DNA from: Dehalococcoidia bacterium
Lineage (GTDB): Bacteria > Chloroflexota > Dehalococcoidia > GIF9 > AB-539-J10
Reading direction: 5' to 3'
Assembly (NCBI GenBank): GCA_030615965.1
Contig: JAUWYE010000002.1
Coordinates: 1-42,338 of the forward strand
Length of the DNA stretch: 42,338 nt
Below the pieces are notes generated by a model. That model searched no databases, had not been told where the DNA came from, and saw only the letters and a program-made list of their open reading frames with translations. This document shows, in pieces, positions 15,482 to 32,587 of the stretch. The position numbers and the translations under genes were made by a program. Positions within the stretch are counted from its first letter, which is position 1. Every line of letters starts with the position of its first letter.

Positions 15482-16186
15482 ATGGACAAGATCAAAGTGA
15501 TGATAATTGATGAGCAAGCATTTTTCAGAGCTGGGGTGCGTCAGACTCTGTCTCAACAATCTGACCTGGAGATATTGGAATGCGACCCAACTCAGAATGC
15601 ACTCGAGCTAATTGAAGCTAATCTCCCTGATGTTGCTTTACTTGGCTCTGACCTGACTAGCTTCAGCGGGATTGAGCTGGGTAGAAAAATTGCCCAACAC
15701 CACCCCAATACTAAAGTCATAGTGCTAAGCCCTGACCCTAATGATGAAGAGCTTTTTGAGGTTATTAAGACTGCAGCCGTAGCCTGCTTGAGTAAGAAAG
15801 CCACTGCCGACGAGCTGGCTAGCACTATAAGACGAGCCTACAGTGGTGAATACCCCATAAATGAAAGCTTGATGGCTAGACCCAGGGTTGCCACGCATAT
15901 ATTAAACCAATTTCGCGGTTTTACGAGAACTATGGAAGGCGTAGCTGCTCCTCTTACCAAAAGGGAAACGCAGATTCTAACCTACATTGCTGAGGGCAAC
16001 TCAAATAAAGAAATCGCCCATATTCTGGAAATCAGCGAGCAAACAATCAAGAATCATGTCAGCGCTATCCTTCGTAAGCTAAATGCTAATGATAGAGCCC
16101 ACGCTGTTACTCTCGCCCTGCGAGGCGGTTGGATTTCACCGGAAGCAAAACCACGAAGGGTATTAGAGGATTTTGATGGAATTTGA
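15482..16186 (+). CDS. NarL/LuxR-family response regulator (REC + LuxR HTH)
   Basis: The REC domain shows IIDEQ, LLGSDL, VIVLS and CLSKK. The C-terminus reads LTKRETQILTYIAEGNSNKEIAHILEISEQTIKNHVSAILRKL. Confidence 0.9.
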   Translation: MDKIKVMIIDEQAFFRAGVRQTLSQQSDLEILECDPTQNALELIEANLPDVALLGSDLTSFSGIELGRKIAQHHPNTKVIVLSPDPNDEELFEVIKTAAVACLSKKATADELASTIRRAYSGEYPINESLMARPRVATHILNQFRGFTRTMEGVAAPLTKRETQILTYIAEGNSNKEIAHILEISEQTIKNHVSAILRKLNANDRAHAVTLALRGGWISPEAKPRRVLEDFDGI

Positions 16187-16637: not shown

Positions 16638-18989
16638 TTGAGCCAATTGGCGAATTACAGTTTACCCGAATTATTGAAAATGGCTGTGAAGGTGCGTCAG
16701 ATGGAAATCAGTCCGGAGCTAAAGACCCAGATTAAAGGGTATCTGGAGCAGCAGGGGCATGAAGTAACCGATGGAGCCAAGCTTCTCGGAAAGTCAGGGA
16801 TTGAGCATACCTTTGAAATGCTGGCTCAAAGAGACGATGGTTTTACTAGCTACACTATTGCTATCAACATTGCTGCTGGTGGTGATAAGGAGACAGAAAT
16901 GGGCACTATTTTCAACTTTGCTAATAAAGCCTACGATTGCGGCATCATTGACAGGCTTCTTATTGCCGTCCCTGAACTCAGTCAGGAAGCGAAACAGTTG
17001 GCCAGCAGGCAGCGAATAAAGGTTATCGATGGAGAACTAATTGAGACACTATTAACCTGGAAACCCACGCAATCAGTTAAGCCCAGGGAGCCGGTTAAGT
17101 TTGAGACAAAGGAGCAACTGCTCAAATCTTTAGTCGACCTGGGCTATATCGTAGAGGAGAAAGCCAAAGCCAAAAGCAAGTCGGGACTTGAATATACCTT
17201 TGATATCCTGGCTCATACTAACAACGGTCATGTTGCTCATATCTTGGGTATAGATTTCCTGAATGGGGAGAAAGAAGTGAGCCTGGAACAGGTAATCTTA
17301 TTTGATACTAAAGCCTACGACACTGAAACTACTGGCAAAGTCATTGTCGTATCCCCAGGGATTAGCTCTGAAGCAAGACAATTTGCCCAGCACCAGGGGA
17401 TAAGAGTTTTTGAGTTGAATCAAAAACCAGTTTCTGAACCTGTGACCGAAGAAATGCCTGGCCAGCCAAAAGAGAAGCCAGCCAAATCAGATAAGCCTCG
17501 AGCCAAGCTACTGAAGCAGCTGCCCCAGCCTGAGGCATTACAGTTGATTCCCGAGGTGATGGCCAGAAGGTATAATGCCATACCCCTGACTATATCTGGT
17601 AGGACAATGGAAGTGGCTATGGCAGACCCGACCGATATCTTTGCCCTGGAGGCTCTTGCCGCCCAGAGCCGAATGAGGATTAAGCCTGTGGCTGCCACTG
17701 CCCAGGAAATCAGGGACGCTATTGACTTCAATTATAAGTCCTTTGGCGAAATTGCAGAGCATATTTCTCGTATCTCCATCCCGGCTGAAGAAACTGATGA
17801 GAAGGTTGTCCTTCGTGCTGCTACTGATACTCCGCTGGTTCAGGCTCTCAACCTCATAATTGAAGAGGCAATCAAAGCCCGAGCATCTGACATTCATATT
17901 GAGCCACAAGAAGATAGAGTGCGAATACGCTACCGTATAGATGGCACTCTTCAAGATACGATGTCTCTACCTATAAGTGTACATCGAGCACTCATTTCAC
18001 GCATCAAAATCCTGGCTGAACTGAACATCGCTGACCATTTTCGTCCTCAAGATGGTCAATTCTCTACCAAGGCTAAAGGGCGAGAGATAGATGTCAGAGT
18101 TGCTACCGCTCCCACTGTCTCGGGGGAGAGATCAACCCTGCGACTTCTGGATAAGTCACTGGCTACTCTGGGGTTACCAGAACTCGGTCTACTCCCTGAT
18201 AGCCTGGCAAAGTACGAAGATATGCTCAAGATTCCCTATGGTATGATTCTGGTTAGCGGTCCCACCGGAGCTGGCAAAACTACCACTCTATATGCCGCAA
18301 TCAATTCTCTTGATACACAGGGGAGAAACATCATTACTATTGAAGACCCTGCCGAATACCGATTTAAGGATATTAACCAGATTCAGGTTAACCCACAGGC
18401 GGGCATTACCTTTGCCAGTGGCTTGAGGGCTATACTGCGTCTTGACCCCGATGTAATATTGGTCGGCGAGATACGTGATGCCGAGACAGCTAACATAGCT
18501 ATTCAGGCAGCCTTAACCGGACACCTGGTGCTGTCTTCTATCCACGCTAATGATGTTGCCGGTGTGCTCACCCGTCTAATTGACCTGAAAGTAGAGCCTT
18601 TCCTGGTAGCCTCAGCAGTTATTGGTGTTGTTGCCCAGCGGATGGTGCGCTGCGTCTGCCCTGATTGTAGTCGCCCTATTGAGACCCCCTTGGTCGAGCA
18701 GATAGCTTATGAAAAGGAAATGGGGGAGAAGCAGACCAAGTTCCTCTACGGTACCGGCTGTAAGTCCTGCGCCTATACCGGTTACCTGGGGCGTACGGGA
18801 ATCTTTGAGATTCTAACTACGAGCGACTCCACAAGAACGATGGTCTGTAATCGAGACAACAGTAGTGTTATCCGAGAGCAGGCACTTAAAGACGGTATGA
18901 TATCTATGATAAACGATGGTATGCGCAAGGTAAAGGCAGGTATTACCACTCCCTCTGAGGTGCTGCGTAATGCCTACATTACAACTTAG
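16638..18989 (+). CDS. pilB: Type IV pilus extension ATPase PilB/GspE with a ~290-aa N-terminal extension carrying two Mrr-like domains
   Basis: The T2SSE_N domain reads LIPEVMARRYNAIPL...VAMADPTDIFALEAL. Walker A is GPTGAGKTTTL, Walker B is DPDVILVGEIRD, the His box is SSIHAND, and the tetra-Cys motif is CPDC...CKSC. The TTG start at 16638 is uncertain; an alternative ATG lies at 16680. Confidence 0.9.
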   Translation: MSQLANYSLPELLKMAVKVRQMEISPELKTQIKGYLEQQGHEVTDGAKLLGKSGIEHTFEMLAQRDDGFTSYTIAINIAAGGDKETEMGTIFNFANKAYDCGIIDRLLIAVPELSQEAKQLASRQRIKVIDGELIETLLTWKPTQSVKPREPVKFETKEQLLKSLVDLGYIVEEKAKAKSKSGLEYTFDILAHTNNGHVAHILGIDFLNGEKEVSLEQVILFDTKAYDTETTGKVIVVSPGISSEARQFAQHQGIRVFELNQKPVSEPVTEEMPGQPKEKPAKSDKPRAKLLKQLPQPEALQLIPEVMARRYNAIPLTISGRTMEVAMADPTDIFALEALAAQSRMRIKPVAATAQEIRDAIDFNYKSFGEIAEHISRISIPAEETDEKVVLRAATDTPLVQALNLIIEEAIKARASDIHIEPQEDRVRIRYRIDGTLQDTMSLPISVHRALISRIKILAELNIADHFRPQDGQFSTKAKGREIDVRVATAPTVSGERSTLRLLDKSLATLGLPELGLLPDSLAKYEDMLKIPYGMILVSGPTGAGKTTTLYAAINSLDTQGRNIITIEDPAEYRFKDINQIQVNPQAGITFASGLRAILRLDPDVILVGEIRDAETANIAIQAALTGHLVLSSIHANDVAGVLTRLIDLKVEPFLVASAVIGVVAQRMVRCVCPDCSRPIETPLVEQIAYEKEMGEKQTKFLYGTGCKSCAYTGYLGRTGIFEILTTSDSTRTMVCNRDNSSVIREQALKDGMISMINDGMRKVKAGITTPSEVLRNAYITT

Positions 18990-19007: not shown

Positions 19008-20219
19008 ATGGATTTCGTTTATACGGCTTATACTGAAGATAAAAAATTAGTTAAGGGCAAGGTTTCCTCTATCAGCGAAGAGGCGGCAACCGAGCTGTTG
19101 AGCTATGGCGGCTATCGGGTCGTTAGCCTTAAGAAAGTCGTTCCCTTGTTTGATAAGGAAAAACTACTAGCCCGCTTTTCTCAGATAAAGCCGTCAGAAA
19201 TAATCATGCTTTCCCGCCAGCTAGCGTTACTCCTGGAATCCGGCACCGATATTGTTACTTCTTTAGACTTGTTACAAGTCCAGACAGATAATCAAACCTT
19301 GAGGAAAATACTTGGTGAGGTATCCTCAGATATTCGCGGTGGTAGCTCACTGTCAAAGGCTCTAAGCAAGTACCCTCGGGCTTTTTCTACAATGTACTCC
19401 CAGGCAATAGCTGCTGGTGAGCAAGGTGGTAACATGGAGGTGGTGCTGAGGCAAATGGCCGATTATCTGGAGAGGGGAGCCACCACTGAGAAGAAGATAA
19501 AAGGTGCCTTGACCTATCCCTTTATGGTGGTTCTTGTAGCTGTTGTTGTGGTAGTGATACTGATCACCTTTGTTTTCCCCAGCTTTATCGGCTTCTATGC
19601 TGAAATTGGAGCTGAGTTGCCTCTGGCCACCAGAATGCTTATCGGCATTACCAATTGGTTTGGCCATTATGGGCTTTATCTTCTGATTGTGATTTTAGCT
19701 GCTGTTGGTGCCACCTATGCCTATATCAAGACCCCAGCCGGGAAATACCGTTGGCACAAAATGATGCTTCGTTTGCCTGTAATCGGGCGTATTATCCAAC
19801 TTAGTGAGCTTTCTCGGTGTTGCCGCACTATGTCATTGTTAATCAGAGTCGGCTTACCCCTACCAGAAGTCATGGCGGCAACCATCCGCGGTACTACCAA
19901 TAAGGCTATAGCGGAGAGTCTGACCGAGGTTCAGCAAGCGTTAATCAGAGGTGAAGGCTTGGCCCAACCTATGGCCAAGAGGGACCTCTTCTTGCCTCTG
20001 ATGACGCAGATGGTGAGCGTTGGTGAGGAAACCGGTAATCTCGAGAACACACTAGTTACTGTAGCCGAAAGCTTTGAGACCGAGACTAATGATAAGACCA
20101 CTGCGGCTGTGGCGCTAATTCAGCCAGTGATAACGGTGTTTCTCGGTTTAGGGGTTGGTTTTGTTGTCTTAGCCATGTTGTCAGCTATGTATTCTGTCTA
20201 TGGTCAGCTAAATATCTAG
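19008..20219 (+). CDS. pilC: Type IV pilus platform protein PilC/GspF
   Basis: 403 aa with two T2SSF repeats (SRQLALLLESG and SRCCRTMSLLIRVG) and 3 TM helices. A GGAGG sequence lies 8 nt upstream of the ATG. Confidence 0.9.
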   Translation: MDFVYTAYTEDKKLVKGKVSSISEEAATELLSYGGYRVVSLKKVVPLFDKEKLLARFSQIKPSEIIMLSRQLALLLESGTDIVTSLDLLQVQTDNQTLRKILGEVSSDIRGGSSLSKALSKYPRAFSTMYSQAIAAGEQGGNMEVVLRQMADYLERGATTEKKIKGALTYPFMVVLVAVVVVVILITFVFPSFIGFYAEIGAELPLATRMLIGITNWFGHYGLYLLIVILAAVGATYAYIKTPAGKYRWHKMMLRLPVIGRIIQLSELSRCCRTMSLLIRVGLPLPEVMAATIRGTTNKAIAESLTEVQQALIRGEGLAQPMAKRDLFLPLMTQMVSVGEETGNLENTLVTVAESFETETNDKTTAAVALIQPVITVFLGLGVGFVVLAMLSAMYSVYGQLNI

Positions 20220-20275
20220 GTGAGGGTTATCAGGGGGTCATATATGGCAATTTGCAGGAATGGTGGCACAAAAGT

Positions 20276-20451
20276 CCCCCTGTCATTGCGAGTCCCGATT
20301 TATCGGGACGAAGCAATCTCGTGCGCCCTTCTGTCATTGCGAGGAGCCCCGATGAATCGGGACGACGAGGCAATCTCAGGGGCAAGGGAATCGCCACGCA
20401 CTCCCCACCTGTCATTGCGAGTCCCGATTTATCGGGACGAAGCAATCTCGG
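20276..20451 (+). repeat. Three tandemly spaced copies of the family G repeat
   Basis: Units lie at 20276-20321, 20331-20380 (variant) and 20406-20451. The unit is ccctGTCATTGCGAGtcccgatttatcgggaCGAAGCAATCTCg, with an internal TCCCGA-TTTA-TCGGGA hairpin. Confidence 0.9.
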
Positions 20452-20487
20452 TGGGGCAGGGGGATTGCCGTGAGCATTCTTAGGAAA

Positions 20488-20943
20488 ATGAAAAAACTAA
20501 GACTGAATAGCCAGGCAAGGAAAGCCTTTCAAGGCAGCTCAAGGGGCTTCACTCTGGTTGAGATAGTGATAGCTATAGCTCTTCTGGGGGTAATTGCTGT
20601 CGCCATTTTAAGCTCCCTATCCTATGCCTCCACGATTCTCATCATTGCCGATAGGCGGGCCACTGCCGAAAGCCTGGCCCGAAGCCAGATGGAATATGTT
20701 AAGAACGAACCGTACATTGACTATTCCGAGCTTGGCCACGGCGATTATGACTTGATAACGATTCTTGACGGTGAGGAGTATGAGCTTGAGCCTGTTATTG
20801 TTGAGCAGCTTGAGGTCGGACTTCAGAAGATAACGGTGACTGTTAGCTATGAGATTCTCAGGTATAACATTAGCACCCATGGCTCTAAAGCAGTACAAGA
20901 ACAATTTACCCTGGATGGCTATAAGAGAGAGCCGGTGACATAG
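20488..20943 (+). CDS. Minor pilin or pseudopilin with a prepilin-type N-terminal cleavage/methylation signal
   Basis: The class III signal is QGSSRG|FTLVEIVIAIALLGVIAV, with Glu at +5. I placed the start at the ATG at 20488 (MKKLRL); the ORF track starts at GTG 20470. Confidence 0.8.
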   Translation: MKKLRLNSQARKAFQGSSRGFTLVEIVIAIALLGVIAVAILSSLSYASTILIIADRRATAESLARSQMEYVKNEPYIDYSELGHGDYDLITILDGEEYELEPVIVEQLEVGLQKITVTVSYEILRYNISTHGSKAVQEQFTLDGYKREPVT

Positions 20944-21031
20944 AGAGGTATAGAAAATTCCGAAATCGCAAATTACAAATGGGAGCTTGGAATTTGGAAT
21001 TTCTATAGAGTCGCGATTGAATCTTAAACAA

Positions 21032-21562
21032 ATGAAGATGAAAAAGCTAAAGAAGGACCAGAGGGGCATTACCCTGATTGAGCTGGTAATAGCCTTCGCT
21101 ATTACTGGCATCATCACCGCCGCCATTACCATGGCCGTTTTTCAGGTGTTTACCATGAACACCCGCACCTCTAACCGCATGGCCGCTGTGAGCCAGGTGC
21201 AACACGCTGGCAAACTGGTCAGCGAAGATATCCTGAAGGCTCAGCCTGCTAAAATAGATGATACCCCGCCAGATGGAAAATTTCTCGTTTTAGGTTGGAC
21301 TGCTCAGAATGGTGCGGAGCATGAGGTTATTTATACTTTAGAGGCTATGCCGCCGTCTGGCTTATTGAAGATACTCTGGCGAGAGCACCGTATTAACTCA
21401 GTCCCTAGTCCCACTACAAAGGTGGCTGAATATATTGACTCTGACCCTGACCAGACTAGGTATGATTGGGATGGTGAGGTGCTCACTTTCAAGGTGACCG
21501 CCAACGTGGGCGGACAAAGTGAGACCAGGGAATATGAAGTTATGCCCAGACCGGGCTCATAA
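21032..21562 (+). CDS. Minor pilin with a prepilin-type N-terminal signal
   Basis: The signal is KKDQRG|ITLIELVIAFAITGIITAA, with Glu at +5. I placed the start at the ATG at 21032 (MKMKKL). Confidence 0.8.
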   Translation: MKMKKLKKDQRGITLIELVIAFAITGIITAAITMAVFQVFTMNTRTSNRMAAVSQVQHAGKLVSEDILKAQPAKIDDTPPDGKFLVLGWTAQNGAEHEVIYTLEAMPPSGLLKILWREHRINSVPSPTTKVAEYIDSDPDQTRYDWDGEVLTFKVTANVGGQSETREYEVMPRPGS

Positions 21563-21776
21563 TAGAAATCCAAAAATCAAAGGCCAAAAATCAAAATGAC
21601 AAACCAAAACGCAAAACTTAAAATGCTTATACCTCTGCTTGCATCTTTGCTTTTTACATTTTAATTTATCGAGGCGTGAAGGAATCCTTTCCTTCACAAT
21701 TCAAATCCCAAATCCTAAATGCCGATTTCCTCCCGACAATGTCGGGACAAAGTCGGGACAATATCAAATGACAAAA

Positions 21777-21824
21777 AGAACTAGTTTTGGCATTTAAGCA
21801 TTTGGATTTTGACATTTGGATTTG
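21777..21824 (+). repeat. Repeat module A, copy 3
   Basis: The sequence aagaactagttttggcatttaagcatttggattttgacatttggatttg is identical by eye to the first 48 nt of 26617-26684. Confidence 0.85.
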
Positions 21825-21986
21825 TTTGGGGCAATGACATCCCCCCTGTCATTGCGAGGAGCGAGATTCCTCGCTTGTGCTTCGGAACAGGCTCCGCAAT
21901 CTCGGTGTGCTTCCTTACTTACACCCAGAACAGCTTCCTTTGACAGTGTTCGCCGGCCTATATATAATTCCTGTGGAGGCATAATT

Positions 21987-22250
21987 ATGTTGACGGAGTA
22001 CGTTGAGCGGGCGATGAGCAAAGCTGTGTATGAGAAGCTCGAAGATGGTACCTATTGTGGCAAGATTCCTGAATGCCATGGGACAATTGCTTTTGGTGAA
22101 ACGCTTTATCAGTGCCAAAGTGAGTTGAGATCGGTTCTCGAAGGCTGGCTGCTGGTCAAGATAAGGCATGGTGACCACCTGCCTGTTATAGATGGACTCG
22201 ACCTAAACAGGGGCATACCAATACTTGAGGAAACTGTAGCCCATGGCTAA
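21987..22250 (+). CDS. hicB: HicB-family antitoxin (module 1)
   Basis: MLTEYVERAMSKAVYEKLEDGTYCGKIPECHGTIAFGETLYQCQSELRSVLEGWL is a paralogue of 28622..28882. GGAGG lies 7 nt upstream of the ATG at 21987. The longer ORF from 21816 runs through repeats. Confidence 0.8.
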   Translation: MLTEYVERAMSKAVYEKLEDGTYCGKIPECHGTIAFGETLYQCQSELRSVLEGWLLVKIRHGDHLPVIDGLDLNRGIPILEETVAHG

Positions 22251-22476
22251 ATGGGCACCGTGCAAACGCCAGGTTTTTATAAGGAAATTAGTTAGATTGG
22301 GTTTTAGCCCACCTGAGCCAGGTGGGCGTCATTTTTATATGCGCTATGGGACACATACCTTGGCTATTCCCAACAATGCTGAATACTCTGTGCCTCAGCT
22401 CAAGACACTTCTCAAGGAAGTGGCACAGATTATGGGAAGGGGGATTTCCTTGCAGGAGTGGCAAGGTCTTTCCTGA
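22243..22476 (+). CDS. hicA: HicA-family mRNA interferase toxin (module 1)
   Basis: 77 aa, reading KRQVFIRKLVRLGFSPPEPGGRHFYMRYG. This is the YcfA/HicA pattern with a conserved His. It overlaps hicB by 8 nt. Confidence 0.8.
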   Translation: MAKWAPCKRQVFIRKLVRLGFSPPEPGGRHFYMRYGTHTLAIPNNAEYSVPQLKTLLKEVAQIMGRGISLQEWQGLS

Positions 22477-22626
22477 GAAATTTGGAGATTGGGTTTTGGG
22501 ATTTAGAATTTAGCCAATGGGCTTGCCGCGCCTCGCTCAGAATGACACATCCCCCCTGTCATTGCGAGTCCCGATTTATCGGGACGAAGCAATCTCGTGG
22601 AGGACAATGATAGTACAGATGGACTA

Positions 22627-22654
22627 TTGACGCCAAAGATGATTACGCTATACT
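22627..22654 (+). promoter_or_regulatory. Candidate promoter P2 (PilX-like gene)
   Basis: TTGACG, a 16-nt spacer and TATACT. A second extended -10 element, TGGTATAAT, lies at 22672-22680. Confidence 0.5.
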
Positions 22655-22693
22655 AATAGTATACTGCTACCTGGTATAATGGGGGGTGAGGTG

Positions 22694-23821
22694 ATGAAAA
22701 TTGCCATGAAGAGATTAATAAGAGATGAAAAAGGGCAGGCGCTGGTCCTGGTCCTGATTCTGCTTCTTGTCGGCGGGCTCATCATCGCTCCCTTGCTGGC
22801 TTATATGGGCACCGGACTTATCGCCGGTAAGGTCTATGAGAGGAGGACGGCTGAGCTTTATGCCGCCGATGCCGGGGTGGAGGACGCGGTATGGAAGATA
22901 CAGCATCAAGTAGCTGGAGTGGAGGGATTGGATAATTGTTACCCGGACTGGTCTTACAATATGACCGACGTTAATGACAAAAGCGTGGATGTTACCATAA
23001 CATGGGTGGATGGTCGAACTTATCGCGTCGTATCAACAGCTACTGGCGATGGCAGCGGGACCCAAATAGATGCTTATGTTGCCAGTGTGTATGGTAATTA
23101 TTCCGGCATAACGAATCAAGTTATTACCAGCCAGGGTGACATTATCCTCCAACCTGGTGTGGATGTCACCCCTGAAGAGGGAGAGAATGCCGCGGTAGAG
23201 TATTATGTTGGTCCCTGGCCGACAGCGGATGAGCTTGCTGCTTGGTACTGGCAGGATGTCGAAGGCGGGACGCACTACGATTCAGACACTGAAATAGACC
23301 TTAACGGCGTTGACAAGGATTTAGGGCCGCTATATGTAGAGGGCGAATTGGATATCGTGAACTCAAGTAATACTCCCGCTACTTTAACCCTTACTGGAAC
23401 TATTTACATTACCGGTGACACACTAATCGGCAAGACTGGCAAAGACTTTACCCTTGAATTAAATGGTCATACTATCTTTGTTGAGAGCGATTCTGCTGAC
23501 CCCCAAAAAGCACTTTGGATAGGGGGGCAGTGTAGCATCGTCGGTCCCGGCGCTATTATGGCTGTAGGGGACATCTATTTTGAACCAAACATAGAAGCAG
23601 GTATGACCGACCCCATATTTATAATGTCAGTTTCGGGCGAAACCCTTTTAAATCCCGGAGGTGATTTCTACGGTTCTGTAGCTGGTAGTGTCCAGGTGCA
23701 ATTACAACCCGGCATAAGCCTGAATTATCCAGAAGGGGGTTTTGGGGACCTTAACTTCCCCGGTTGTAGTGGAACTCAGCTAATTTACAGCATTGCTTCG
23801 TGGGATATTAACCAGCAATAG
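22694..23821 (+). CDS. PilX-N-like pilus-associated protein with a large, probably beta-rich C-terminal domain
   Basis: The N-terminus EKGQALVLVLILLLVGGLIIAPLL...YAADAGVEDAVWKI resembles PilX_N. It has no Glu at +5. The choice of start (22679, 22694 or 22706) is uncertain. Confidence 0.55.
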   Translation: MKIAMKRLIRDEKGQALVLVLILLLVGGLIIAPLLAYMGTGLIAGKVYERRTAELYAADAGVEDAVWKIQHQVAGVEGLDNCYPDWSYNMTDVNDKSVDVTITWVDGRTYRVVSTATGDGSGTQIDAYVASVYGNYSGITNQVITSQGDIILQPGVDVTPEEGENAAVEYYVGPWPTADELAAWYWQDVEGGTHYDSDTEIDLNGVDKDLGPLYVEGELDIVNSSNTPATLTLTGTIYITGDTLIGKTGKDFTLELNGHTIFVESDSADPQKALWIGGQCSIVGPGAIMAVGDIYFEPNIEAGMTDPIFIMSVSGETLLNPGGDFYGSVAGSVQVQLQPGISLNYPEGGFGDLNFPGCSGTQLIYSIASWDINQQ

Positions 23822-24087
23822 GATGGGTTAATCAGATTTGAATTATAAAGGAGGCGGCATTTATATGTCGCCCTACGGGGTTTATTAGGCGAATGCGCTA
23901 TTTAATAATGTGGTTGCCCAATTTATTTAGCAACCTCCTTTGTCATTGCGAGGCACGACAGTGCCGAAGCAATCTCGGTGATGGAGGCAGGGGATTGCCG
24001 CGCACCTTTCAGGGGCTCGCAATGACAAAAAGCGTTGTGCTCCGATTTCATCGGAGCAACTACTTATGCTGGAAAGGAAGATAGGAA

Positions 24088-24303
24088 ATGAAGCAAATTA
24101 CTGTTACCGCCGAATTGATAAAAGAGGAAGAAGGGGGCTATACCGTCTACTGCCCAGAATTAGATATTTATACTCAGGGAGACGATGTAAAAGACGCTAT
24201 CAAAAACCTTAAAGAGGCTGCCGAACTTCACATAGAAGAGTTGGGAATCGAGAACATCAAGCTGAAAAAAATACAGCGGAGACAGATAGAAATGGTAATT
24301 TGA
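24088..24303 (+). CDS. hicB: HicB-like (UPF0150) antitoxin (module 2)
   Basis: 71 aa, reading TAELIKEEEGGYTVYCPELDIYTQGDDVKDAIKNLKEAAELHIEE. Confidence 0.7.
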   Translation: MKQITVTAELIKEEEGGYTVYCPELDIYTQGDDVKDAIKNLKEAAELHIEELGIENIKLKKIQRRQIEMVI

Positions 24304-24304
24304 G

Positions 24305-24541
24305 ATGTCCAGATTGCCAAGGATAACAGGAAAGGAATTGGCGAAGGCGTTGCAAAAGGAGGGCTTTGAAATTACACGGCAAAGGGGAAGCCACGTGCAG
24401 ATGACAAAGTATATTGACGGCGAGAAATTAACCTTTCCTGTTCCCGTCCATGCTGGCAAAATCGTTAAACAAGGGACTTTAAAGGGAATACTGAGGAAGG
24501 CAAACATTTCTGTGGAGCGACTGGAGAGACTCCTTAGATGA
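24305..24541 (+). CDS. hicA: HicA-family toxin (module 2)
   Basis: 78 aa, reading ITGKELAKALQKEGFEITRQRGSHVQM. It starts 1 nt after the hicB stop. Confidence 0.8.
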   Translation: MSRLPRITGKELAKALQKEGFEITRQRGSHVQMTKYIDGEKLTFPVPVHAGKIVKQGTLKGILRKANISVERLERLLR

Positions 24542-24622
24542 TTGAAAAAGACAAACATTTCCGGGGGACTAGTGGACAGATTTATTAGACAATGGTATAT
24601 TACCGAGGAAGCGGAGTAGTTT

Positions 24623-25177
24623 ATGAAGCTGAGTAAGAAGGTTTGGCTGATTATAGGAATCGCCATTCTCGCTATCGTCCTCGCCGTCCTGTTCTCGAAT
24701 TACTCCGGGCTGGCTGGAGAGCGGAAGCAATTAGAGAACGACCTCTCGGATGCTCAAGATCTCTTGCCTAGGCTCACTGTTGAAAAGGGAGACCTGAAAA
24801 ACCAACTCGCTCAAGCTCAGTCATTGCTTGACAGTAGCCGGGCAAAATTCCCTGAATCAGTGACGAGCATTGAATACGGCGAGGACTTATTTGAGATTGC
24901 TGACGATTGTACTGTGGAGATAACCAGGCTCACTGCATCAATGCCGACTGACAAAGAAGCAGGAGGTTCTACCTATTCTGTTTCTTCATTTGCGGTAAGT
25001 GTCAGGGGTGACGTGGATGACATACTGGATTTTGTAGACGCTTTGAGGGCCGGTGTGGATTTTCAACTACCGTGGAGTGCTGAGCTGACGGCAGTAAAAA
25101 TCAATTATGCCGGTGAAGAAGATACCGCAGGAACAGCTACCATCAACCTGGATATCTATGCCTATAAAGGTGAATAA
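24623..25177 (+). CDS. pilO: PilO-like pilus alignment protein (TM anchor + coiled coil + globular domain)
   Basis: 184 aa. The N-terminal TM segment is VWLIIGIAILAIVLAVLF, followed by the coiled coil ERKQLENDLSDAQDLL...NQLAQAQSLL. The call rests on architecture and genomic context. Confidence 0.5.
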   Translation: MKLSKKVWLIIGIAILAIVLAVLFSNYSGLAGERKQLENDLSDAQDLLPRLTVEKGDLKNQLAQAQSLLDSSRAKFPESVTSIEYGEDLFEIADDCTVEITRLTASMPTDKEAGGSTYSVSSFAVSVRGDVDDILDFVDALRAGVDFQLPWSAELTAVKINYAGEEDTAGTATINLDIYAYKGE

Positions 25178-25179
25178 AC

Positions 25180-26607
25180 ATGGCGAAAAGAGTTACCACC
25201 TTATTTATTAGAGATACCGCTATTAACCTGCTGGTAATGAAGGGCAGACAGGTGGAAAAGTGGGCTATCTTGCCACTGGAGCCAGGTCTGGTCAGCCAGG
25301 GGCTCATCGTTGATGAAGCGCGGGTAGCCGACGAGGTGAAACAGCTATTCAAAAGGGAAAAGGTAAGCACAGCGAAGGTTATCATCGCTTTAAGCGGGCA
25401 CGATTCCCTGTACCGTATCATAACCCTGCCTGAGCTGCCTGAAGCTATACTTCCTGAGGCGGTAAGGCGTGAGGCAAAGAGAACGATACCAACACCTTTA
25501 GAAGAGGCCTATTTTTCGTACCAGCGCCTTCCCTCCGAAAGGGGAGAAGGTCGCGTTTTTCTGGCCAGTTTTCCCCGCAATCTGACTGATTCCTTAGTCA
25601 GAACGCTGCGTCAGGCCGGTATTAAGCCGTATATTATAGACTTAGCTCCTCTAGCCCTGTGCCGAATCCCCAATGAGCCCAGAGCAATCATTATAAATGC
25701 CGGGTTAGACCACCTGGATGTCATGGTTATAGCAGACAGGCTCCCCCAGGTCATCCGCAGGTTATCCCTGCCCGGCGAGGCTGAATCTTTAGAAGAAAAG
25801 CTGCCCCTCATCACTGAAGAGTTCAACAGAACTGTTGCCTTCTATAATTCCAGCCATATGGAACAGCCTCTAGATTCAACTGTGCCTGTGTTTGCCTGCG
25901 GCGACCTGGCAGAAGCACCGGAGACCTGGCAGTCAGCGCTTGGCCAGTCAGGTTATTCGGTGTCACCGTTGCCATCGCCTGTGGAACCCCCCGAGGGCTT
26001 CAACCCGAACGACTTCATGGTCAATATGGGGCTGGCTCTCAAGGAACTACTGCCAGAACAGAAAGAGGCTAACTTTTCACTAGTGAATTTCAATGTCCTG
26101 CCCGAGGCCTATTTACCCGAGCGTTTCTCTATATCACGAGTCCTTGTCCCTATCGGTAGTGTCGTTGGTATCGGCCTCATTATCTTTGGCGTAATTTTTA
26201 TCCAGGCTAATCGCGCCCAAATCGAGACATTGCGTTCCCAGGTGACAGCAACTGAGAGCAGCGTCACCCGATTGCAAAGAGAAACAACAATATTGCGCAC
26301 GCAGATTGGGCCGATAAAAGCCACCGCCGATGAGCTTAATGCCAGAGTTGTCACTATGGAACGGGGGCGTGCACAGATTGCCATGGATTTGAGTGAAATT
26401 GATAGACATGCCGGAGAGAAGATAACCTTGAGTAATGTTAGTCATGCAGGCGACTCGGTAACAGTGAACGCGGTGGCTTCAGATGAAGATGCCGTTTTCG
26501 GGTACGCCGACGATTTGAGAAAGAGCGATAGATTCTCGGATGTTTGGATTTCCTCTATCGCCGGGAGCGGCAAAACATTTAGTTTTGTGCTCTCCTTAAC
26601 AAAATAA
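25180..26607 (+). CDS. pilM: PilM (actin-like ATPase fold) fused to a PilN-like TM/coiled-coil segment
   Basis: The N-terminal ~300 aa resemble PilM (IALSGHDSLYRIITLPE and IIDLAPLALCRI). They are followed by the TM helix VLVPIGSVVGIGLIIFGVIFI and a coiled coil. Confidence 0.7.
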   Translation: MAKRVTTLFIRDTAINLLVMKGRQVEKWAILPLEPGLVSQGLIVDEARVADEVKQLFKREKVSTAKVIIALSGHDSLYRIITLPELPEAILPEAVRREAKRTIPTPLEEAYFSYQRLPSERGEGRVFLASFPRNLTDSLVRTLRQAGIKPYIIDLAPLALCRIPNEPRAIIINAGLDHLDVMVIADRLPQVIRRLSLPGEAESLEEKLPLITEEFNRTVAFYNSSHMEQPLDSTVPVFACGDLAEAPETWQSALGQSGYSVSPLPSPVEPPEGFNPNDFMVNMGLALKELLPEQKEANFSLVNFNVLPEAYLPERFSISRVLVPIGSVVGIGLIIFGVIFIQANRAQIETLRSQVTATESSVTRLQRETTILRTQIGPIKATADELNARVVTMERGRAQIAMDLSEIDRHAGEKITLSNVSHAGDSVTVNAVASDEDAVFGYADDLRKSDRFSDVWISSIAGSGKTFSFVLSLTK

Positions 26608-26616
26608 AGTTATTTA

Positions 26617-26684
26617 AAGAACTAGTTTTGGCATTTAAGCATTTGGATTTTGACATTTGGATTTGGGCAAAGGGATTTTGGGGG
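26617..26684 (+). repeat. Repeat module A, copy 1 (upstream of pilT)
   Basis: The sequence aagaactagttttggcatttaagcatttggattttgacatttggatttgggcaaagggattttggggg has its reverse complement at 29892-29976. The 29.9-kb copy carries an 18-nt insertion. Confidence 0.9.
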
Positions 26685-26757
26685 AATAGAACTATCTTCT
26701 AGAACATAATCTCTTCCCAAGCTATTCCCAGCCCTGTCATACTATATTCAGGATAAT
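26685..26757 (+). repeat. 73-nt module B, copy 2, inserted between modules A and C
   Basis: See 14425-14497. Module B is absent from the otherwise matching A-C junction at about 29890. Confidence 0.9.
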
Positions 26758-26832
26758 AAGGGGAGGGTGGGTTAATACTATTTTCCTATTACTAATGGGC
26801 GATTGACAGTAAGGATGAAGGAAGCTTACACT
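26758..26832 (+). promoter_or_regulatory. Module C (50 nt) ending in a -35 element; candidate pilT promoter P4
   Basis: The sequence aaggggagggtgggttaatactattttcctattactaatgggcgaTTGAC matches the reverse complement of 29841-29890 with 1 mismatch. The -35 TTGACA lies at 26803-26808. The -10 is weak (TACACT, 18-nt spacer). Confidence 0.5.
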
Positions 26833-26917
26833 ATATTATAAATATACTCAAATATACTATAAAGCAGGGGTAAAATTGTGTTGGGATTTATGTAGTTGAC
26901 TATAGAAGGGAAAAAAT

Positions 26918-27985
26918 ATGGATGTTTTTTCATTGCTTCGGACAGCTAACTCAAAGCGGGCTAGCGATTTGCATCTGGTTGTTGGCAGCCCAGCAATATT
27001 CCGTATCGACGGCACTCTGGAATCATCAAACGGTGTAGCTCCACTAAGCGCTGAGGATATAAACGAAGCTTTTCTCCAGCTAACCACGCCTGAGGAGAGA
27101 GAAACCTTCCACCGCCATCTGGAGCTTGACTTTGGCTATACATTACCGGATGTCGGTCGTCTGCGATGCAATGCCGCTCAGCAGCGCGGGTCTATCAGCC
27201 TTGCCGTGCGCCTGCTGCTGCCAAAAATCCCCACCCTAGACGAACTGGAACTGCCCCAGATATGTAAGGAGCTTGCTTTGAAGCCGAGAGGACTGGTAGT
27301 GATTACTGGACCTACCGGCAGCGGTAAAAGCACCACCCTGGCAGCTATGATTCAGTACTTGAATACTCATGAGACTCGCCATGTGGTTACCATTGAAGAC
27401 CCCATAGAATATGTTTACACCAGCCTTAAATGCGCTGTGACCCAGCGCCAGTTGGGCACTGATACCCTATCATTTACTAATGCTCTAAAGCATATCTTGA
27501 GGCAGGACCCGGATGTGATTCTGATCGGGGAGATGAGAGATACCGACACTGCGGATGCCGTCCTTACCATAGCTGAGACCGGGCACTTCATATTAACTAC
27601 CGGTCATGCCCCCAGCGCTACTCAGGCAATGGAGCGAATAATTGATTTGTTCCCACCTCATCAGCGCCACCTAGCTCAGACACGGCTGGCTTCTCTACTT
27701 GTTGCTGTGTTGTGTCAGGTGCTTGTGCCCCGGACTGACGGCTCAGGAAGGATAGCCGCCGTGGAAATCATGCTCGGCAATCCGGCAGCGAAGAACCTCA
27801 TTCGTGAAGGCAAACTCTACCAGCTACCCAATGTAATCCGTACCCACCGGGAACTAGGCATGATTTCGCTTGACGAAGCCCTGGTCAGTCTCTATCTTAA
27901 GGGAACCATCAGTGGCGCAACCGTGCTTGCTTCCTGCAACGACCGCCAGGAAGTGGAAAAGCTCATCGGCAAGGTAAAATTATAG
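26918..27985 (+). CDS. pilT: Type IV pilus retraction ATPase PilT
   Basis: 355 aa. Walker A is GPTGSGKSTTL and Walker B is DPDVILIGEMRD. AAKNLIREGKLYQL matches the PilT AIRNLIRE signature. Confidence 0.9.
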   Translation: MDVFSLLRTANSKRASDLHLVVGSPAIFRIDGTLESSNGVAPLSAEDINEAFLQLTTPEERETFHRHLELDFGYTLPDVGRLRCNAAQQRGSISLAVRLLLPKIPTLDELELPQICKELALKPRGLVVITGPTGSGKSTTLAAMIQYLNTHETRHVVTIEDPIEYVYTSLKCAVTQRQLGTDTLSFTNALKHILRQDPDVILIGEMRDTDTADAVLTIAETGHFILTTGHAPSATQAMERIIDLFPPHQRHLAQTRLASLLVAVLCQVLVPRTDGSGRIAAVEIMLGNPAAKNLIREGKLYQLPNVIRTHRELGMISLDEALVSLYLKGTISGATVLASCNDRQEVEKLIGKVKL

Positions 27986-28403: not shown

Positions 28404-28622
28404 CTATAGCTTTTCCCAGCTATCCTTGTCTATTCCTGCCTGCTTAAGAATCCTCGAGAGCAATTCCCTTCCGACGTCTCTCCGGTGCGGATTAGGAAGT
28501 CGCAAGCGAATCATGCCTTTGAGCATAAATTGGTGTTTTCCACCAGAATAGGGGCCTTCAAAACCTAAGATTTGTAAATATCTGATTAGCTCGACTCTTT
28601 TTATAGGCCCAAGGCGGGGCAC
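28404..28622 (-). CDS. hicA: HicA-family toxin (module 3)
   Basis: 72 aa, reading KRVELIRYLQILGFEGPYSGGKHQFMLKG. It is a paralogue of 22243..22476. Confidence 0.8.
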   Translation of the reverse strand: MPRLGPIKRVELIRYLQILGFEGPYSGGKHQFMLKGMIRLRLPNPHRRDVGRELLSRILKQAGIDKDSWEKL

Positions 28623-29287: not shown

Positions 29288-29680
29288 TTACCTGACCCAC
29301 TTGCCATGACTTCCGCTCGCCCCGGAGGTGCCCGCTTGCCATGTGAGTTCGTCCCAGCCGGTGCCGGTCGTCACCCAGCCGTAGTCTGTGTCAAAACCGT
29401 AGGTACCCGTGACGTTTCCTGCGAGGAAGTCACTCAGGTCGCCTGAGCCCGCAGGCCACGCACTGTTCTCAGCATAATAGGCCAGCGATGCCGTTTTCAC
29501 ATTCTCCACTTCGCTGTTGGCTGCGCTCAGTTTCCCCGTGATCATAAAGGCACCTAGATTGGGGATAACCACGGCAGCGATAATGCCCAGAATGGCCACC
29601 ACGATGAGCAACTCGATGAGGGTGAAGCCCTTCTCTCCACGATGTAGACCCTTAAATATGGGATATTTTGTCTTTGTCAT
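29288..29680 (-). CDS. pilA: Type IV major pilin (prepilin-type N-terminal signal)
   Basis: 130 aa with the signal HRGEKG|FTLIELLIVVAILGIIAAVVIPNL. It has its own promoter and a strong terminator. Confidence 0.85.
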   Translation of the reverse strand: MTKTKYPIFKGLHRGEKGFTLIELLIVVAILGIIAAVVIPNLGAFMITGKLSAANSEVENVKTASLAYYAENSAWPAGSGDLSDFLAGNVTGTYGFDTDYGWVTTGTGWDELTWQAGTSGASGSHGKWVR

Positions 29681-29817: not shown

Positions 29818-29845
29818 AGTATAGCGTGCTCCTCATAGCCGTCAA
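29818..29845 (-). promoter_or_regulatory. Candidate pilA promoter P3
   Basis: The minus strand reads TTGACG (29845-29840), a 16-nt spacer and TATACT (29823-29818). Confidence 0.55.
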
Positions 29846-29976
29846 TCACCCATTAGTAATAGGAAAATAGTATTAACCCACCCTCCCCTTTCCCCCAAAA
29901 TCCATTTGCCCAAATCCAAATGTCAAAATCTAAATGACAATTGAAATCCAAATGCTTAAATGCCAAAACTAGTTCT
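29841..29976 (-). repeat. Modules C and A upstream of pilA, without module B
   Basis: The reverse complement of 29841-29890 equals module C, and 29892-29976 equals module A. Confidence 0.9.
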
Positions 29977-30056
29977 TTTTGTCATTTGAATTTTGGGCTT
30001 GTCCCGATTAGATCGGGATTGAGCTTCGTCATTTGATATTGTTTGGGATTTAGAAA

Positions 30057-31448
30057 TTAGGATTTAGAATTTTCCTGCGTAGGTGGCTCCAGTTGCTCGA
30101 CCTCAAAGACCCTTATTCCCTGACGCTTAGCGAACTGCCTGGCTTCCCTGGTGAGTCCGGGAACAGCAATAAAGACCTTATCCAGAATACCTGCATCATA
30201 AGCCTTGTCGTCAAAGTCAAATACCTTATCCAGTCCCATCGGCTTCTCATCCACCTCGATGCCAATAGCAATACGATGGATAATGATGCCCTCATCTCTG
30301 GTAGCCAGTATGTCTATGTTATGGGCAGCGCCAGACCGGCCTCTGACTTCAGCATCTTCCTTTACTCTGTAGCCCTGTTTCTCCAGGTATTGTATAAGCT
30401 GTGATTTGGACTTAAATTCAAAGGGCTCCTTCACTATTTCCCGGCCTGGCTGGGGACCACCAGCCAGCACTGTCTCCAGGTCCTTGGGTTCAAGCACCTT
30501 TATTCTCTGATAGCTGGCAAATTTCTCCGCCTCTTCGCCTAACGCGGGGATGATAATCATTATTTTATCGTGAATGCCGCTATCGTAGGCTTTGACATCA
30601 AAGTCCAGCATCCTGTCCAGTCCTATCTTATCCCTGGCAATCTCAACCCCGATAGCGATATTATGGGTAACGACGCCGTCATCCCTGGTAGCTAGTATAT
30701 CTATGCAATGTTCTGCTCCCGACCTCCCTTTTATTCTGGCATTTTCCGTTACTTCGTAGCCATGCTGCCTCAAGAGTTTTATAAACTGTGCTTTAGGCTG
30801 AAGTTCAAATTCCAGCCAGCTTCTCTTCGTTTCATCAAAGCTGTATGAGTAGACATTTACCTCGTCAACCTCATCCTCATCGGCAAGCGAGGAACATTTC
30901 AGACAGCGCCATTTTAGCAGCGGCACGCTAAATATCTCGCCGCAATCACGGCACTTGCGCAGCACTCCCAGGCTCTGGTAGTCGATGTCGATAGTTCGCA
31001 GCTCCACTTTACACCTGGGGCATATATATCTACCCCTGGCTATAAATTCGTCTTCAAGGCCGACATACTTGCAGGCAAAGTGCTCGAGGACTCTGCCCCG
31101 GACGATATCTCCCGAGCCGCATTTAGGGCAGTGGATGGATGGTCTTATATTTATTGACTGGCACCGGGGACAACGGAGGAGCCTATCAAAGAAACTCTTT
31201 TTCAATATACCCTTATCAGCCAGGGATTCCATAATTGCTACTGCTTCCTTGCCTTTGATTTTTAGTGTTTGCTCAACGACTGGATAGATGAAGCCCAGCT
31301 CAGTGGCGAAATCAAGCCGGGGTTTAATATCAACGATCTTCGCCGCCAGCATTGCCGCCACCAATTTCATCGCTATCTCACCTTCCTCCATGCCGCTTAC
31401 GGCTTGTGAGGTTTCTGTTGCTTCTATCGCCTTATCGACTTCTTCCAT
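30057..31448 (-). CDS. wHTH-like N-terminus + five CxxC pairs (Zn ribbons) + tandem pair of the same Mrr-like domain found in PilB
   Basis: 463 aa. The CxxC pairs are at C93/96, C107/110, C143/146, C166/169 and C182/185. Residues ~212-330 and ~340-452 align with PilB residues ~27-140 and ~153-262. Shared blocks are GRSGAEHCIDILATRDDG...IAIG...FDVKAYD...EEAEKFASYQRIKV. Confidence 0.8.
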   Translation of the reverse strand: MEEVDKAIEATETSQAVSGMEEGEIAMKLVAAMLAAKIVDIKPRLDFATELGFIYPVVEQTLKIKGKEAVAIMESLADKGILKKSFFDRLLRCPRCQSINIRPSIHCPKCGSGDIVRGRVLEHFACKYVGLEDEFIARGRYICPRCKVELRTIDIDYQSLGVLRKCRDCGEIFSVPLLKWRCLKCSSLADEDEVDEVNVYSYSFDETKRSWLEFELQPKAQFIKLLRQHGYEVTENARIKGRSGAEHCIDILATRDDGVVTHNIAIGVEIARDKIGLDRMLDFDVKAYDSGIHDKIMIIIPALGEEAEKFASYQRIKVLEPKDLETVLAGGPQPGREIVKEPFEFKSKSQLIQYLEKQGYRVKEDAEVRGRSGAAHNIDILATRDEGIIIHRIAIGIEVDEKPMGLDKVFDFDDKAYDAGILDKVFIAVPGLTREARQFAKRQGIRVFEVEQLEPPTQENSKS

Positions 31449-31754
31449 ACTTTGCCTCCGTTCACGTAGTTAGAAAAGTATAATTCGCAATATCGCAGAA
31501 GTCAATAATAGTCAACCACAGCCAAAAAGTGGTCAGCGGTCAGCTTTCAGCCCGGATACTGACCACCAATCTCATTGCCCCACGAGACTGCTTCGCTGCC
31601 CCAATTCATCGGGGCTCCTCGCAATGACAGGGGAAGAGGGCAGGCCCAGCTTCGAGGCGTGAAGGAATCCCTTCCTTCACGCTTGAAATGGTAAACAATG
31701 CGACTGCCTCTTTCAAAAAATTTTGATTTTTGAATTTCTATGGGGTTAGTTTAC

Positions 31755-31837
31755 TGCCGAGGGAGGGACTCGAACCCACACTCCCTTACAGGAAGCGGAT
31801 TTTAAGTCCGCCGCGTCTGCCATTCCGCCACCTCGGC
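31755..31837 (-). tRNA. tRNA-Leu (anticodon TAA)
   Basis: The hand-folded sequence is GCCGAGGTGGCGGAATGGCAGACGCGGCGGACTTAAAATCCGC...GGGTTCGAGTCCCTCCCTCGGCA. It has a long variable arm and no encoded CCA. Confidence 0.85.
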
Positions 31838-31858
31838 CTGATAATTGCTAACTCAAGA

Positions 31859-31931
31859 AGGCGGCGGGCGGATTCGAACCGCCGCATCGGGGTTTTGCAG
31901 ACCCCTGCCTTAACCTCTTGGCTACACCGCC
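31859..31931 (-). tRNA. tRNA-Cys (anticodon GCA)
   Basis: The acceptor is GGCGGTG/CGCCGCC, the anticodon arm is GGGGT-CTGCAAA-ACCCC, the T-arm is GGCGG-TTCGAAT-CCGCC and the discriminator is U. Confidence 0.8.
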
Positions 31932-31948
31932 GCAACTACCAAATTTAC

Positions 31949-32023
31949 TGGAGCGGAAGACGGGATTCGAACCCGCGACCTCTTCCTTGGCAAGGAAGCA
32001 TTCTACCGCTGAACTACTTCCGC
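31949..32023 (-). tRNA. tRNA-Gly (anticodon GCC)
   Basis: The sequence is GCGGAAGTAGTTCAGCGGTAGAATGCTTCCTTGCCAAGGAAGAGGTCGCGGGTTCGAATCCCGTCTTCCGCTCCA, with CCA encoded. Confidence 0.9.
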
Positions 32024-32069
32024 TCTGAATAAATTTTACCGCCTTTTCTCAGTTCCCGCAAGCTAACCT

Positions 32070-32156
32070 TGGTGCCGAGGGGGAGATTTGAACTCCCACG
32101 GGCTTGCGCCCACCACCCCCTCAAGATGGCGTGTCTACCTATTCCACCACCTCGGC
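32070..32156 (-). tRNA. tRNA-Leu (anticodon GAG)
   Basis: The sequence is GCCGAGGTGGTGGAATAGGTAGACACGCCATCTTGAGGGGGTGG...GAGTTCAAATCTCCCCCTCGGCACCA. It has a long variable arm and an encoded CCA. Confidence 0.85.
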
Positions 32157-32157
32157 C

Positions 32158-32235
32158 TGGCAGGGGCGGCAGGATTCGAACCCGCGACCTGCGGTTTTGG
32201 AGACCGCTGCTCTAGCCAAACTGAGCTACACCCCT
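32158..32235 (-). tRNA. tRNA-Trp (anticodon CCA)
   Basis: The sequence is AGGGGTGTAGCTCAG...GCGGTCTCCAAAACCGC...GCGGGTTCGAATCCTGCCGCCCCTGCCA. The A1-U72 pair and G73 match bacterial tRNA-Trp. Confidence 0.85.
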
Positions 32236-32259
32236 GAATCAGCGTAATTATATCAAAAA

Positions 32260-32333
32260 TACCCCTGGGGCGACTCGAACGCCCGACACACGGTTTAGGA
32301 AACCGCTGCTCTATCCAACTGAGCTACAGGGGC
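32260..32333 (-). tRNA. tRNA-Arg (anticodon CCT)
   Basis: The sequence is GCCCCTGTAGCTCAGTTGGATAGAGCAGCGGTTTCCTAAACCGT...GGGCGTTCGAGTCGCCCCAGGGGTA. It has a G1-U72 wobble pair and no encoded CCA. Confidence 0.75.
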
Positions 32334-32587
32334 ACGCCACTACCAGAACCTTCGCTGTGTCACAGCTCTTTCGCGAGTTTTTCCGATTTTTATATTAACA
32401 AAAAGCCTTAACCATGGCAATAGCAATGCAGAGCGGTTTGCTGGGCGATAGTTTGACAGGGGCTCGCATCTGTAATATCTGTAACCTAAGCCTCCTCTCA
32501 AATAACAGAGCGTATATTTTGTCACCCCCAAGCCAAAGCTCTGAGCAAAGAGCCTAGCGGAGGGTCTAGATTCTTCGCCTCAGCTAG

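Follow-up and report, generated by a model that had tools for sequence, protein, structure and literature searches.

At the end of the type IV pilus (T4P) gene cluster in a 42,338-nucleotide stretch of Dehalococcoidia bacterium DNA (contig JAUWYE010000002.1, positions 1 to 42,338; this whole stretch is called the window below), a gene for a 463-amino-acid (aa) protein sits between a tRNA cluster and the major pilin gene pilA. Judged from its sequence, the protein is a stand-alone, receiver-less member of a family in which the TackOD1 domain is joined to domains with the fold of restriction endonucleases (REases) that have lost the active site (iREase), and it is dedicated to T4P in this Dehalococcoidia lineage. 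The same iREase tandem is present on the pilus motor PilB encoded in the window. The corresponding features are the following.

30057..31448, minus strand: whole gene, an open reading frame (ORF) with ATG start; TackOD1 plus two Mrr-like domains predicted to be inactivated (iREase), 463 aa
30840..31376, minus strand: TackOD1 domain, aa 25-203, Pfam PF18551 (E=1.6e-40, positions 9-187 of 188 in the hidden Markov model (HMM); AlphaFold2 (AF2) confidence pLDDT 95.4)
31173..31376, minus strand: winged helix-turn-helix (wHTH)-like N-terminal part of TackOD1, aa 25-92, three helices and a long beta-hairpin (AF2 secondary structure, weak profile matches of winged-helix type)
30894..31172, minus strand: Cys-rich zinc-ribbon cluster, aa 93-185, five CxxC and one HxxC, three Zn sites predicted (sequence, alignment conservation)
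30474..30797, minus strand: iREase repeat 1, aa 218-325, Mrr_cat-like PD-(D/E)xK fold, canonical E replaced by G267 and K by E269
30087..30407, minus strand: iREase repeat 2, aa 348-454, canonical E replaced by G396 and K by E398
16638..18989, plus strand: pilB, extension ATPase of 783 aa, two iREase domains followed by MshEN and T2SSE
16722..17420, plus strand: N-terminal tandem iREase module of PilB, aa 29-134 and 158-261, homologous to the tandem of the 463-aa protein

The five CxxC pairs noticed in a preliminary description of this DNA (C93/96, C107/110, C143/146, C166/169 and C182/185) are all present, and a sixth metal-ligand pair, HxxC (H123/C126), had been overlooked. In a family alignment of 52 sequences, seven of the ligand cysteines are invariant, and four more Cys as well as the His are at least 90% conserved. 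Since the five CxxC pairs and the HxxC provide 12 Cys/His ligands, enough for three Zn sites, three such sites are predicted, in agreement with the earlier expectation of two or more zinc ribbons. The published description of TackOD1, with 11 conserved Cys in five CxxC and an HxxC (PMC5847659), fits the protein. The preliminary description had tentatively named TackOD1 as an NCBIfam entry; the family was right (139.1 bits against a Pfam gathering cut-off of 32), but the model belongs to Pfam, and an NCBIfam scan gave no model for the TackOD1 part. No Pfam match to the receiver (REC) domain Response_reg was found in the protein.

In a first AF2 structure prediction, based on 27 close homologues, the C-terminal domains came out well but the TackOD1 half did not (pLDDT 27-62). 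It was replaced by a second run with 52 diverse family sequences covering aa 25-333, which reached a pLDDT of 95.4 and a predicted template modelling score (pTM) of 0.78; both models are monomers. The predicted chain begins with three helices and a long beta-hairpin, continues with beta-rich zinc-ribbon elements and ends in an alpha/beta domain. The model has helices 2-10, 32-38 and 42-54 and hairpin 58-82 at the N-terminus, for which a winged-helix-like segment had been proposed earlier. This segment lies within the bounds of the TackOD1 Pfam model, and no wHTH profile matched it significantly. When both models were compared with the PDB by Foldseek, only the iREase part was matched, and the TackOD1 part had no structural neighbour in the top 50. 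A comparison of the whole protein with PDB chain sequences gave nothing significant (best match: the zinc region of PolD DP2, E=0.05).

Nuclease-like domains common to the 463-aa protein and PilB

Both C-terminal repeats exceed the Pfam Mrr_cat gathering score (48.7 bits against a cut-off of 21, in two stretches). The best Foldseek match of the iREase part was AF1548 (1y88, E=7e-7), and further matches were Cdn1, MspJI, Can2, FokI, EcoT38I and Rpb5, those to Can2 and Cdn1 falling on the nuclease domains of these proteins. We built a repeat profile from 179 repeats of 150 diverse representatives. Its best-kept positions are G241/S243/G244 (90-94%), D289 (93%), H247 (78%), D250 (74%) and K286 (71%). 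The position of the canonical Lys is occupied by L, A, I or E and never by Lys, and just ~44% of the repeats have an acidic residue at the (D/E) position. In the profile alignment, the E-C-K of AF1548 stands opposite G267-V-E269 of the 463-aa protein.

The NCBI name of the homologues, 'restriction endonuclease', implies an active restriction or defence nuclease. Such an enzyme would agree with the Mrr_cat match above the cut-off, with the confirmed PD-(D/E)xK fold and with the beta-2 Asp, which is retained in both repeats here (D250/D379) and in most repeats of the profile. However, the canonical Lys is absent throughout the family, both repeats of this protein have Gly where (D/E) is expected, and a PADLOC scan found no defence family. 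The loci examined contained no methyltransferase or defence neighbours, their context being pili or exopolysaccharide, and the module also occurs as a fusion partner of a pilus ATPase and of response-regulator receivers. Because (D/E)xK is lost, the Lys is missing family-wide and the PADLOC scan was empty, we classify the C-terminal repeats on sequence grounds as inactivated REase-fold modules. An active nuclease, which the preliminary description had also held to be incompatible with its proposal, is extremely unlikely, and the public name of the homologues is misleading.

The same tandem forms most of the 270-aa N-terminal extension of PilB, which is followed by the MshEN and T2SSE domains (Pfam). 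The shared tandem described earlier was confirmed: aa 213-455 of the 463-aa protein are collinear with aa 21-262 of PilB (41% identity over 243 aa, E=5e-62 in BLASTP, well above chance), and both tandems end with EARQFA(K/Q)(R/H)QGIRVFE. The G241/S243/G244-, H247-, K286- and D289-type residues are also present in both PilB repeats. When scanned alone, the PilB extension reached Mrr_cat and weakly touched NA-iREase1 (Pfam), and an HMM built from the repeats matched only the 463-aa protein and PilB in the whole window. PilB proteins with the iREase fusion were found in 27 genome loci, all of Dehalococcoidia type, with two repeats in every complete copy; the fusion is confined to Dehalococcoidia. 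Library representatives consisting of the tandem only were N-terminal fragments of PilB or probable truncated genes. One library protein (P0259) combines a PilB-type iREase tandem with a degenerate remnant of MshEN and has no ATPase domain.

Genomic context of the family and of the gene

When 1.84 billion representative proteins were searched exhaustively, relatives turned up in 2,369 clusters at E<=1e-3 and in 1,654 clusters at E<=1e-10. The domain, described earlier as rare, is therefore not rare, and only its fusion to PilB is restricted to one lineage. In Dehalococcoidia/Chloroflexota, close homologues built in the same way number more than 1,000. The nearest non-orthologues (39-46% identity) consist of REC, a linker of 100-400 aa, TackOD1 and one to three Mrr-like domains. 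Many further proteins of 310-350 aa (~30% identity), with one Nitrososphaerales/Thaumarchaeota cluster and one candidate division WOR-3 cluster among them, match aa 25-330, that is TackOD1 and one iREase. Of 104 representatives in which a complete TackOD1 is followed by 100 or more residues, 103 have an iREase domain after a linker of 13 aa (median), a count in which the full-length query favours two-domain matches. TackOD1-iREase can thus be described as a fixed two-part cytoplasmic module, in which a wHTH-like start and a predicted three-zinc cluster are followed, after ~13 residues, by one or two dead Mrr-type domains. Scans of species-representative genomes with the single proteins P0133 and P0126 revealed no relatives, and that with P0163 only two loci.

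The 463-aa ORF indeed lies upstream of pilA on the same strand, across a spacer of 376 bp. Our orthologue sample comprised 26 Dehalococcoidia/Chloroflexota loci (52-84% identity), 21 of them informative. A pilin gene follows downstream on the same strand in 16 of the 21, usually with pilT, pilMN and the pilO-like gene beyond it; in three, which form a subgroup of 55-57% identity, the gene is divergent and adjoins the prepilin peptidase gene pilD; the remaining two lack pilus genes within 10 kb. The preliminary description had proposed a survey of homologues as a check of a T4P role, and the link to pilA or pilD in 19 of 21 informative loci supports such a role for the orthologues. The family as a whole is not specific to T4P. 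Among 12 loci of distant relatives, seven have the gene immediately ahead of, and in the same orientation as, one for a PgaC/IcaA-like processive glycosyltransferase of family 2 (GT2), separated by 37-97 bp or overlapping by 25 nt, with a small ORF in between in one case (L058/59; the others are L027, L028-30, the P0134 contig, L065, L066 and L067). Two (L062, L063) have it directly upstream of or overlapping pilB, and the PilB of these loci begins with MshEN and has no iREase module. Archaeal T2SSE/T2SSF genes adjoin one relative (L061), which is T4P-linked like L062 and L063; another has lspA as its neighbour (L064), and one locus was uninformative. Tight operon coupling to GT2 or pilB, by overlap or a 37-97 bp gap, was thus seen in nine of the 12. 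Since the relatives adjoin GT2 or pilus genes, the theme of the family is cell-surface polymer machines, not pili alone.

Three of the REC-fused relatives come after a GAF histidine kinase and/or an OmpR-type regulator, the latter being present in the same locus in L027, L060 and L066. No fusion of GT2 with iREase was seen among the proteins of the representative library. One library protein (P0196) carries the N-terminus of a UDP-glucose/GDP-mannose dehydrogenase fused to TackOD1, which fits the exopolysaccharide theme. The small ORF of L058/59 (L058 9013-9447, L059 1075-1509) encodes a free-standing iREase of 144 aa between the TackOD1-iREase gene, which it overlaps by 17 nt, and the PgaC-like GT2 gene (E=5e-15 to the repeat HMM).

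In the window itself, the following features surround the gene or bear on its expression.

29288..29680, minus strand: pilA, major pilin of 130 aa with class III signal peptide/N_methyl (Pfam)
29818..29845, minus strand: pilA promoter-like site TTGACG-16-TATACT, the same pattern being present in 9 of 14 orthologous spacers
31477..31505, minus strand: promoter-like site of the 463-aa gene, TTGACT-17-TATACT, between the tRNA cluster and the ATG (consensus match only)
15482..16186, plus strand: REC-LuxR response regulator directly upstream of pilB (Pfam)
19008..27985, plus strand: rest of the T4P cluster, with pilC, two minor pilins, a 380-aa ORF, the pilO-like gene, pilMN and pilT
~21780-21830, ~26620-26670 and ~29894-29997: copies of a ~55-nt intergenic element, with variants at ~16290-16330 and ~28070-28110
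24088-24541 (plus strand), 28404-28882 (minus strand), 21816-22250 (plus strand) and 32848-33458 (plus strand): toxin-antitoxin-like gene pairs, recognized by eye

Because pilA has its own promoter-like site, we regard it as a separate transcription unit. The preliminary description had proposed that the 463-aa protein regulates the pilin gene, and a transcription factor could act here if the wHTH-like segment, the zinc ribbons or the pseudo-dimeric dead-nuclease tandem bound DNA upstream of the pilA promoter and controlled pilin expression; on this view, the relatives fused to REC would be response regulators of the usual DNA-binding kind. Most response-regulator output domains do bind DNA, and the position of the gene directly upstream of pilA in 15-16 orthologous loci, together with a conserved sigma-70-like pilA promoter and its conserved flanks, speaks for this explanation. 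So does the three-helix and hairpin start predicted by AF2, and the weak profile matches of this segment are all to winged-helix proteins (SelB, PH0061, RPA, Z-alpha, CooA, MarR). REC-wHTH-TackOD1 architectures have also been described (PMC5847659).

However, all these profile matches are below threshold (SelB winged helix, E=0.018; MarR_2, E=0.0068, in 2 of 27 members), and the putative recognition helix, the third, is mostly acidic and variable. The mean net charge is -1.6 for the wHTH-like segment, with 29% of the members net positive, and -3.3 for the Mrr-like domain. Control of transcription would explain neither the presence of the same tandem on the pilus ATPase nor the translational coupling of relatives to GT2 or pilB genes. 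Moreover, canonical OmpR- or LuxR-type regulators are already encoded in the same loci; the REC-LuxR regulator heading the pilB operon here is present upstream of the fused pilB in 19 of 20 loci. We therefore consider a pilA transcription factor a doubtful explanation, although it is the strongest rival of the one favoured below, and DNA binding by the protein appears mildly disfavoured.

The spacer between the two genes does contain copies of the ~55-nt element CCCAAATCCAAATGTCAAAATCCAAATGCTTAAATGCCAAAACTAGTTCTTT, but the repeats did not prove to be a conserved operator. The element has inverted-repeat ends, is near-identical in three gaps of the pilus cluster and is dispersed, its core AAATCCAAATG occurring 12 times against 1.26 expected, and it is poorly conserved in the orthologous pilA spacers. 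The repeats were accordingly rejected as an operator for the 463-aa protein; the element looks like a strain-specific repeat similar to miniature inverted-repeat transposable elements (MITE) or repetitive extragenic palindromes (REP). The toxin-antitoxin-like pairs, of HicA/HicB and MazF/RHH type, lie within and beside the pilus cluster, and some of them adjoin copies of this repeat.

When the REC-LuxR regulator is aligned with a NarL guide sequence, Gly appears to fall at the position of the phospho-acceptor Asp, here and in 10 of 12 homologues; its receiver would therefore lack the aspartate. The window showed no gene for a histidine kinase. The six-tRNA cluster (Leu-taa, Cys, Gly, Leu-gag, Trp, Arg-cct; 31755-32334, minus strand) is located immediately upstream of the 463-aa gene, and a further tRNA gene, tRNA-Ala (33828-33902, minus strand), overlaps a 122-aa ORF. 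At 36683-38522 (plus strand), two adjacent genes encode paralogous secreted proteins of 324 and 222 aa with repeated 'ITSL.AE...C.ASD.D.DELSY.WS..GG.I.G.G....W.AP' modules and a C-terminal CSxC motif.

A possible regulator or adaptor of the pilus motor

We tentatively favour the reading that the 463-aa protein acts post-translationally on the pilus motor, as a regulator or an adaptor. Its tandem iREase would pair with the homologous module on PilB, in the way REase-fold domains usually dimerise, and this pairing would couple an upstream signal to pilus extension; the protein would not cut DNA. PilB is proposed as the target because an unfused pilB gene lies beside TackOD1-iREase in L062/L063 and the iREase module is fused to PilB here, which is a Rosetta-stone relationship. 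Pairing between iREase domains is suggested by the free iREase ORF of L058/59, and the presence of OmpR- or LuxR-type regulators in the same loci suggests a division of labour. The operon coupling of relatives to pilB or GT2 and the net acidic wHTH-like and iREase segments also count for post-translational action. A precedent for two-component control of such synthases at the protein level is provided by the fusion of REC directly to the same type of GT2 in Methanobacteriaceae (PMC5847659).

Several points weigh against this regulator or adaptor. Most GT2-linked relatives have partner enzymes that carry no iREase, so that iREase-iREase pairing is not the general mechanism of the family and the TackOD1 part must carry any contact there. 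The gene has a promoter-like site of its own and adjoins pilA, not pilB, an arrangement that fits a transcription factor equally well. The wHTH, the zinc ribbon and the REase fold are all of nucleic-acid-binding ancestry, and net charge gives only a rough indication of DNA binding. Finally, the repeats of PilB and of the 463-aa protein are 32-53% identical in all combinations, with no clean orthology of first to first and second to second repeats, and the transfer of the tandem between the two proteins therefore appears to be old.

The conserved residues could also be explained by a shared sensor of a small ligand, in which the dead-nuclease domain has been re-used as a pocket for a nucleotide or second messenger (G-x-S-G...H..D...K..D), and the 463-aa protein and PilB each respond independently to a common signal, as PilZ and MshEN do to cyclic di-GMP (c-di-GMP). 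The T4P ATPase and processive GT2 are the same targets as those of c-di-GMP receptors. The best-conserved residues across the 179 repeats are indeed a non-catalytic set that is kept in both PilB repeats, and the window encodes (9230-12274, minus strand) a multi-pass membrane protein of 1,014 aa with motifs, recognized by eye, of GGDEF type (RYGGDEF) and HD-GYP type (HHERWDGGGYP). Since this protein is encoded here, c-di-GMP signalling is probably present in the organism. However, G-x-S-G...D derives partly from the ancestral Mrr motif and does not require a new pocket, and we found no precedent for a ligand-binding REase fold, the Foldseek matches to Can2 and Cdn1 being nuclease domains. We consider such a sensor improbable.

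Beyond this locus, it is conceivable, though speculative, that TackOD1-iREase represents an unrecognised class of post-translational switches, extending from archaea to bacteria and linking two-component signalling to PilB- or PgaC-like machines through a dead-nuclease element for docking or ligand sensing. If so, the PilB fusion would identify the target, like a 'Rosetta stone', and confirmation would provide a new route for two-component control of adhesion and biofilm structures in ammonia-oxidising archaea and Chloroflexota and would correct the 'restriction endonuclease' annotation of more than 1,000 proteins.

Comparison with known systems

The protein appears by all testable criteria to belong to the TackOD1/arCOG06883 family, so that the regulatory system suspected here was not undescribed at the family level. 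TackOD1 was reported in thaumarchaeal T4P loci in 2016 (Makarova et al., PMC4858521) and as an output domain of response regulators in 2018 (Galperin et al., PMC5847659). These two comparative genomics studies were the only literature found on TackOD1, PF18551 or arCOG06883; they describe a ~200-aa double-zinc-ribbon domain and never mention a fused REase-like partner. Compared with this literature, the near-obligate fusion of TackOD1 to a dead Mrr-type domain, the dominant association of the family with PgaC-like synthases, the bacterial, receiver-less form with a tandem repeat beside pilA, and the attachment of the tandem to PilB in Dehalococcoidia appear new.

With the TackOD1/arCOG06883 proteins of Nitrososphaerota, the 463-aa protein shares the full-length Pfam domain with five CxxC and an HxxC, the cytoplasmic location and the T4P loci. 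The archaeal proteins of ~314-336 aa contain one iREase domain, since they align to aa 25-330 of the query. In contrast, the 463-aa protein is bacterial, has two iREase domains and is encoded beside the pilin of a bacterial-type T4P (PilB/PilC/PilMN/PilT), and the Nitrososphaerales relative in our sample (L028-30, L068/69) precedes GT2, outside a pilus locus. The REC-TackOD1 response regulators have TackOD1 with one to three iREase domains as their C-terminal output, as in the 463-aa protein, but possess an N-terminal receiver and the long linker, whereas our protein is receiver-less. Their operons follow the order histidine kinase, OmpR-type response regulator, REC-TackOD1 and GT2, while the window showed no kinase gene.

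The Mrr-family/PD-(D/E)xK REases resemble the C-terminal repeats in the fold, the Mrr_cat HMM match and the retained beta-2 Asp, and NA-iREase1, a Pfam family of inactive REases, is also touched by PilB repeat 2 and by the relative P0122. The differences are G-V-E at the position of ExK and the context, which is neither restriction-modification nor defence, as the neighbours here are pilus, GT2, tRNA and housekeeping genes.

Since 2016-2018, TackOD1 has stood as an orphan among the output domains of response regulators, and its occurrence in thaumarchaeal pilus loci had been noted only loosely. The present survey makes it testable, since the unit can be taken as TackOD1 plus a dead Mrr-type domain and the partners as a PgaC-like synthase or the pilus machinery, and the dead-nuclease tandem common to the 463-aa protein and the Dehalococcoidia pilus motor points to PilB as a direct target. 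Nothing established is overturned by this, and the function of an orphan signalling domain becomes directly testable.

The c-di-GMP receptor modules PilZ and MshEN control PilB-type ATPases and BcsA/PgaC-type synthases. TackOD1-iREase resembles them by functional analogy, both being small cytoplasmic modules fused to or encoded beside a T4P extension ATPase or a processive GT2, with a signal that would be post-translational. The two differ in that TackOD1-iREase has no relation in sequence or fold to PilZ and MshEN and that the input of its relatives would be a phosphorylated fused receiver and not a nucleotide. If the proposed switch class exists, TackOD1-iREase would play the part of PilZ/MshEN receptors in lineages that include Nitrososphaerota and Dehalococcoidia.

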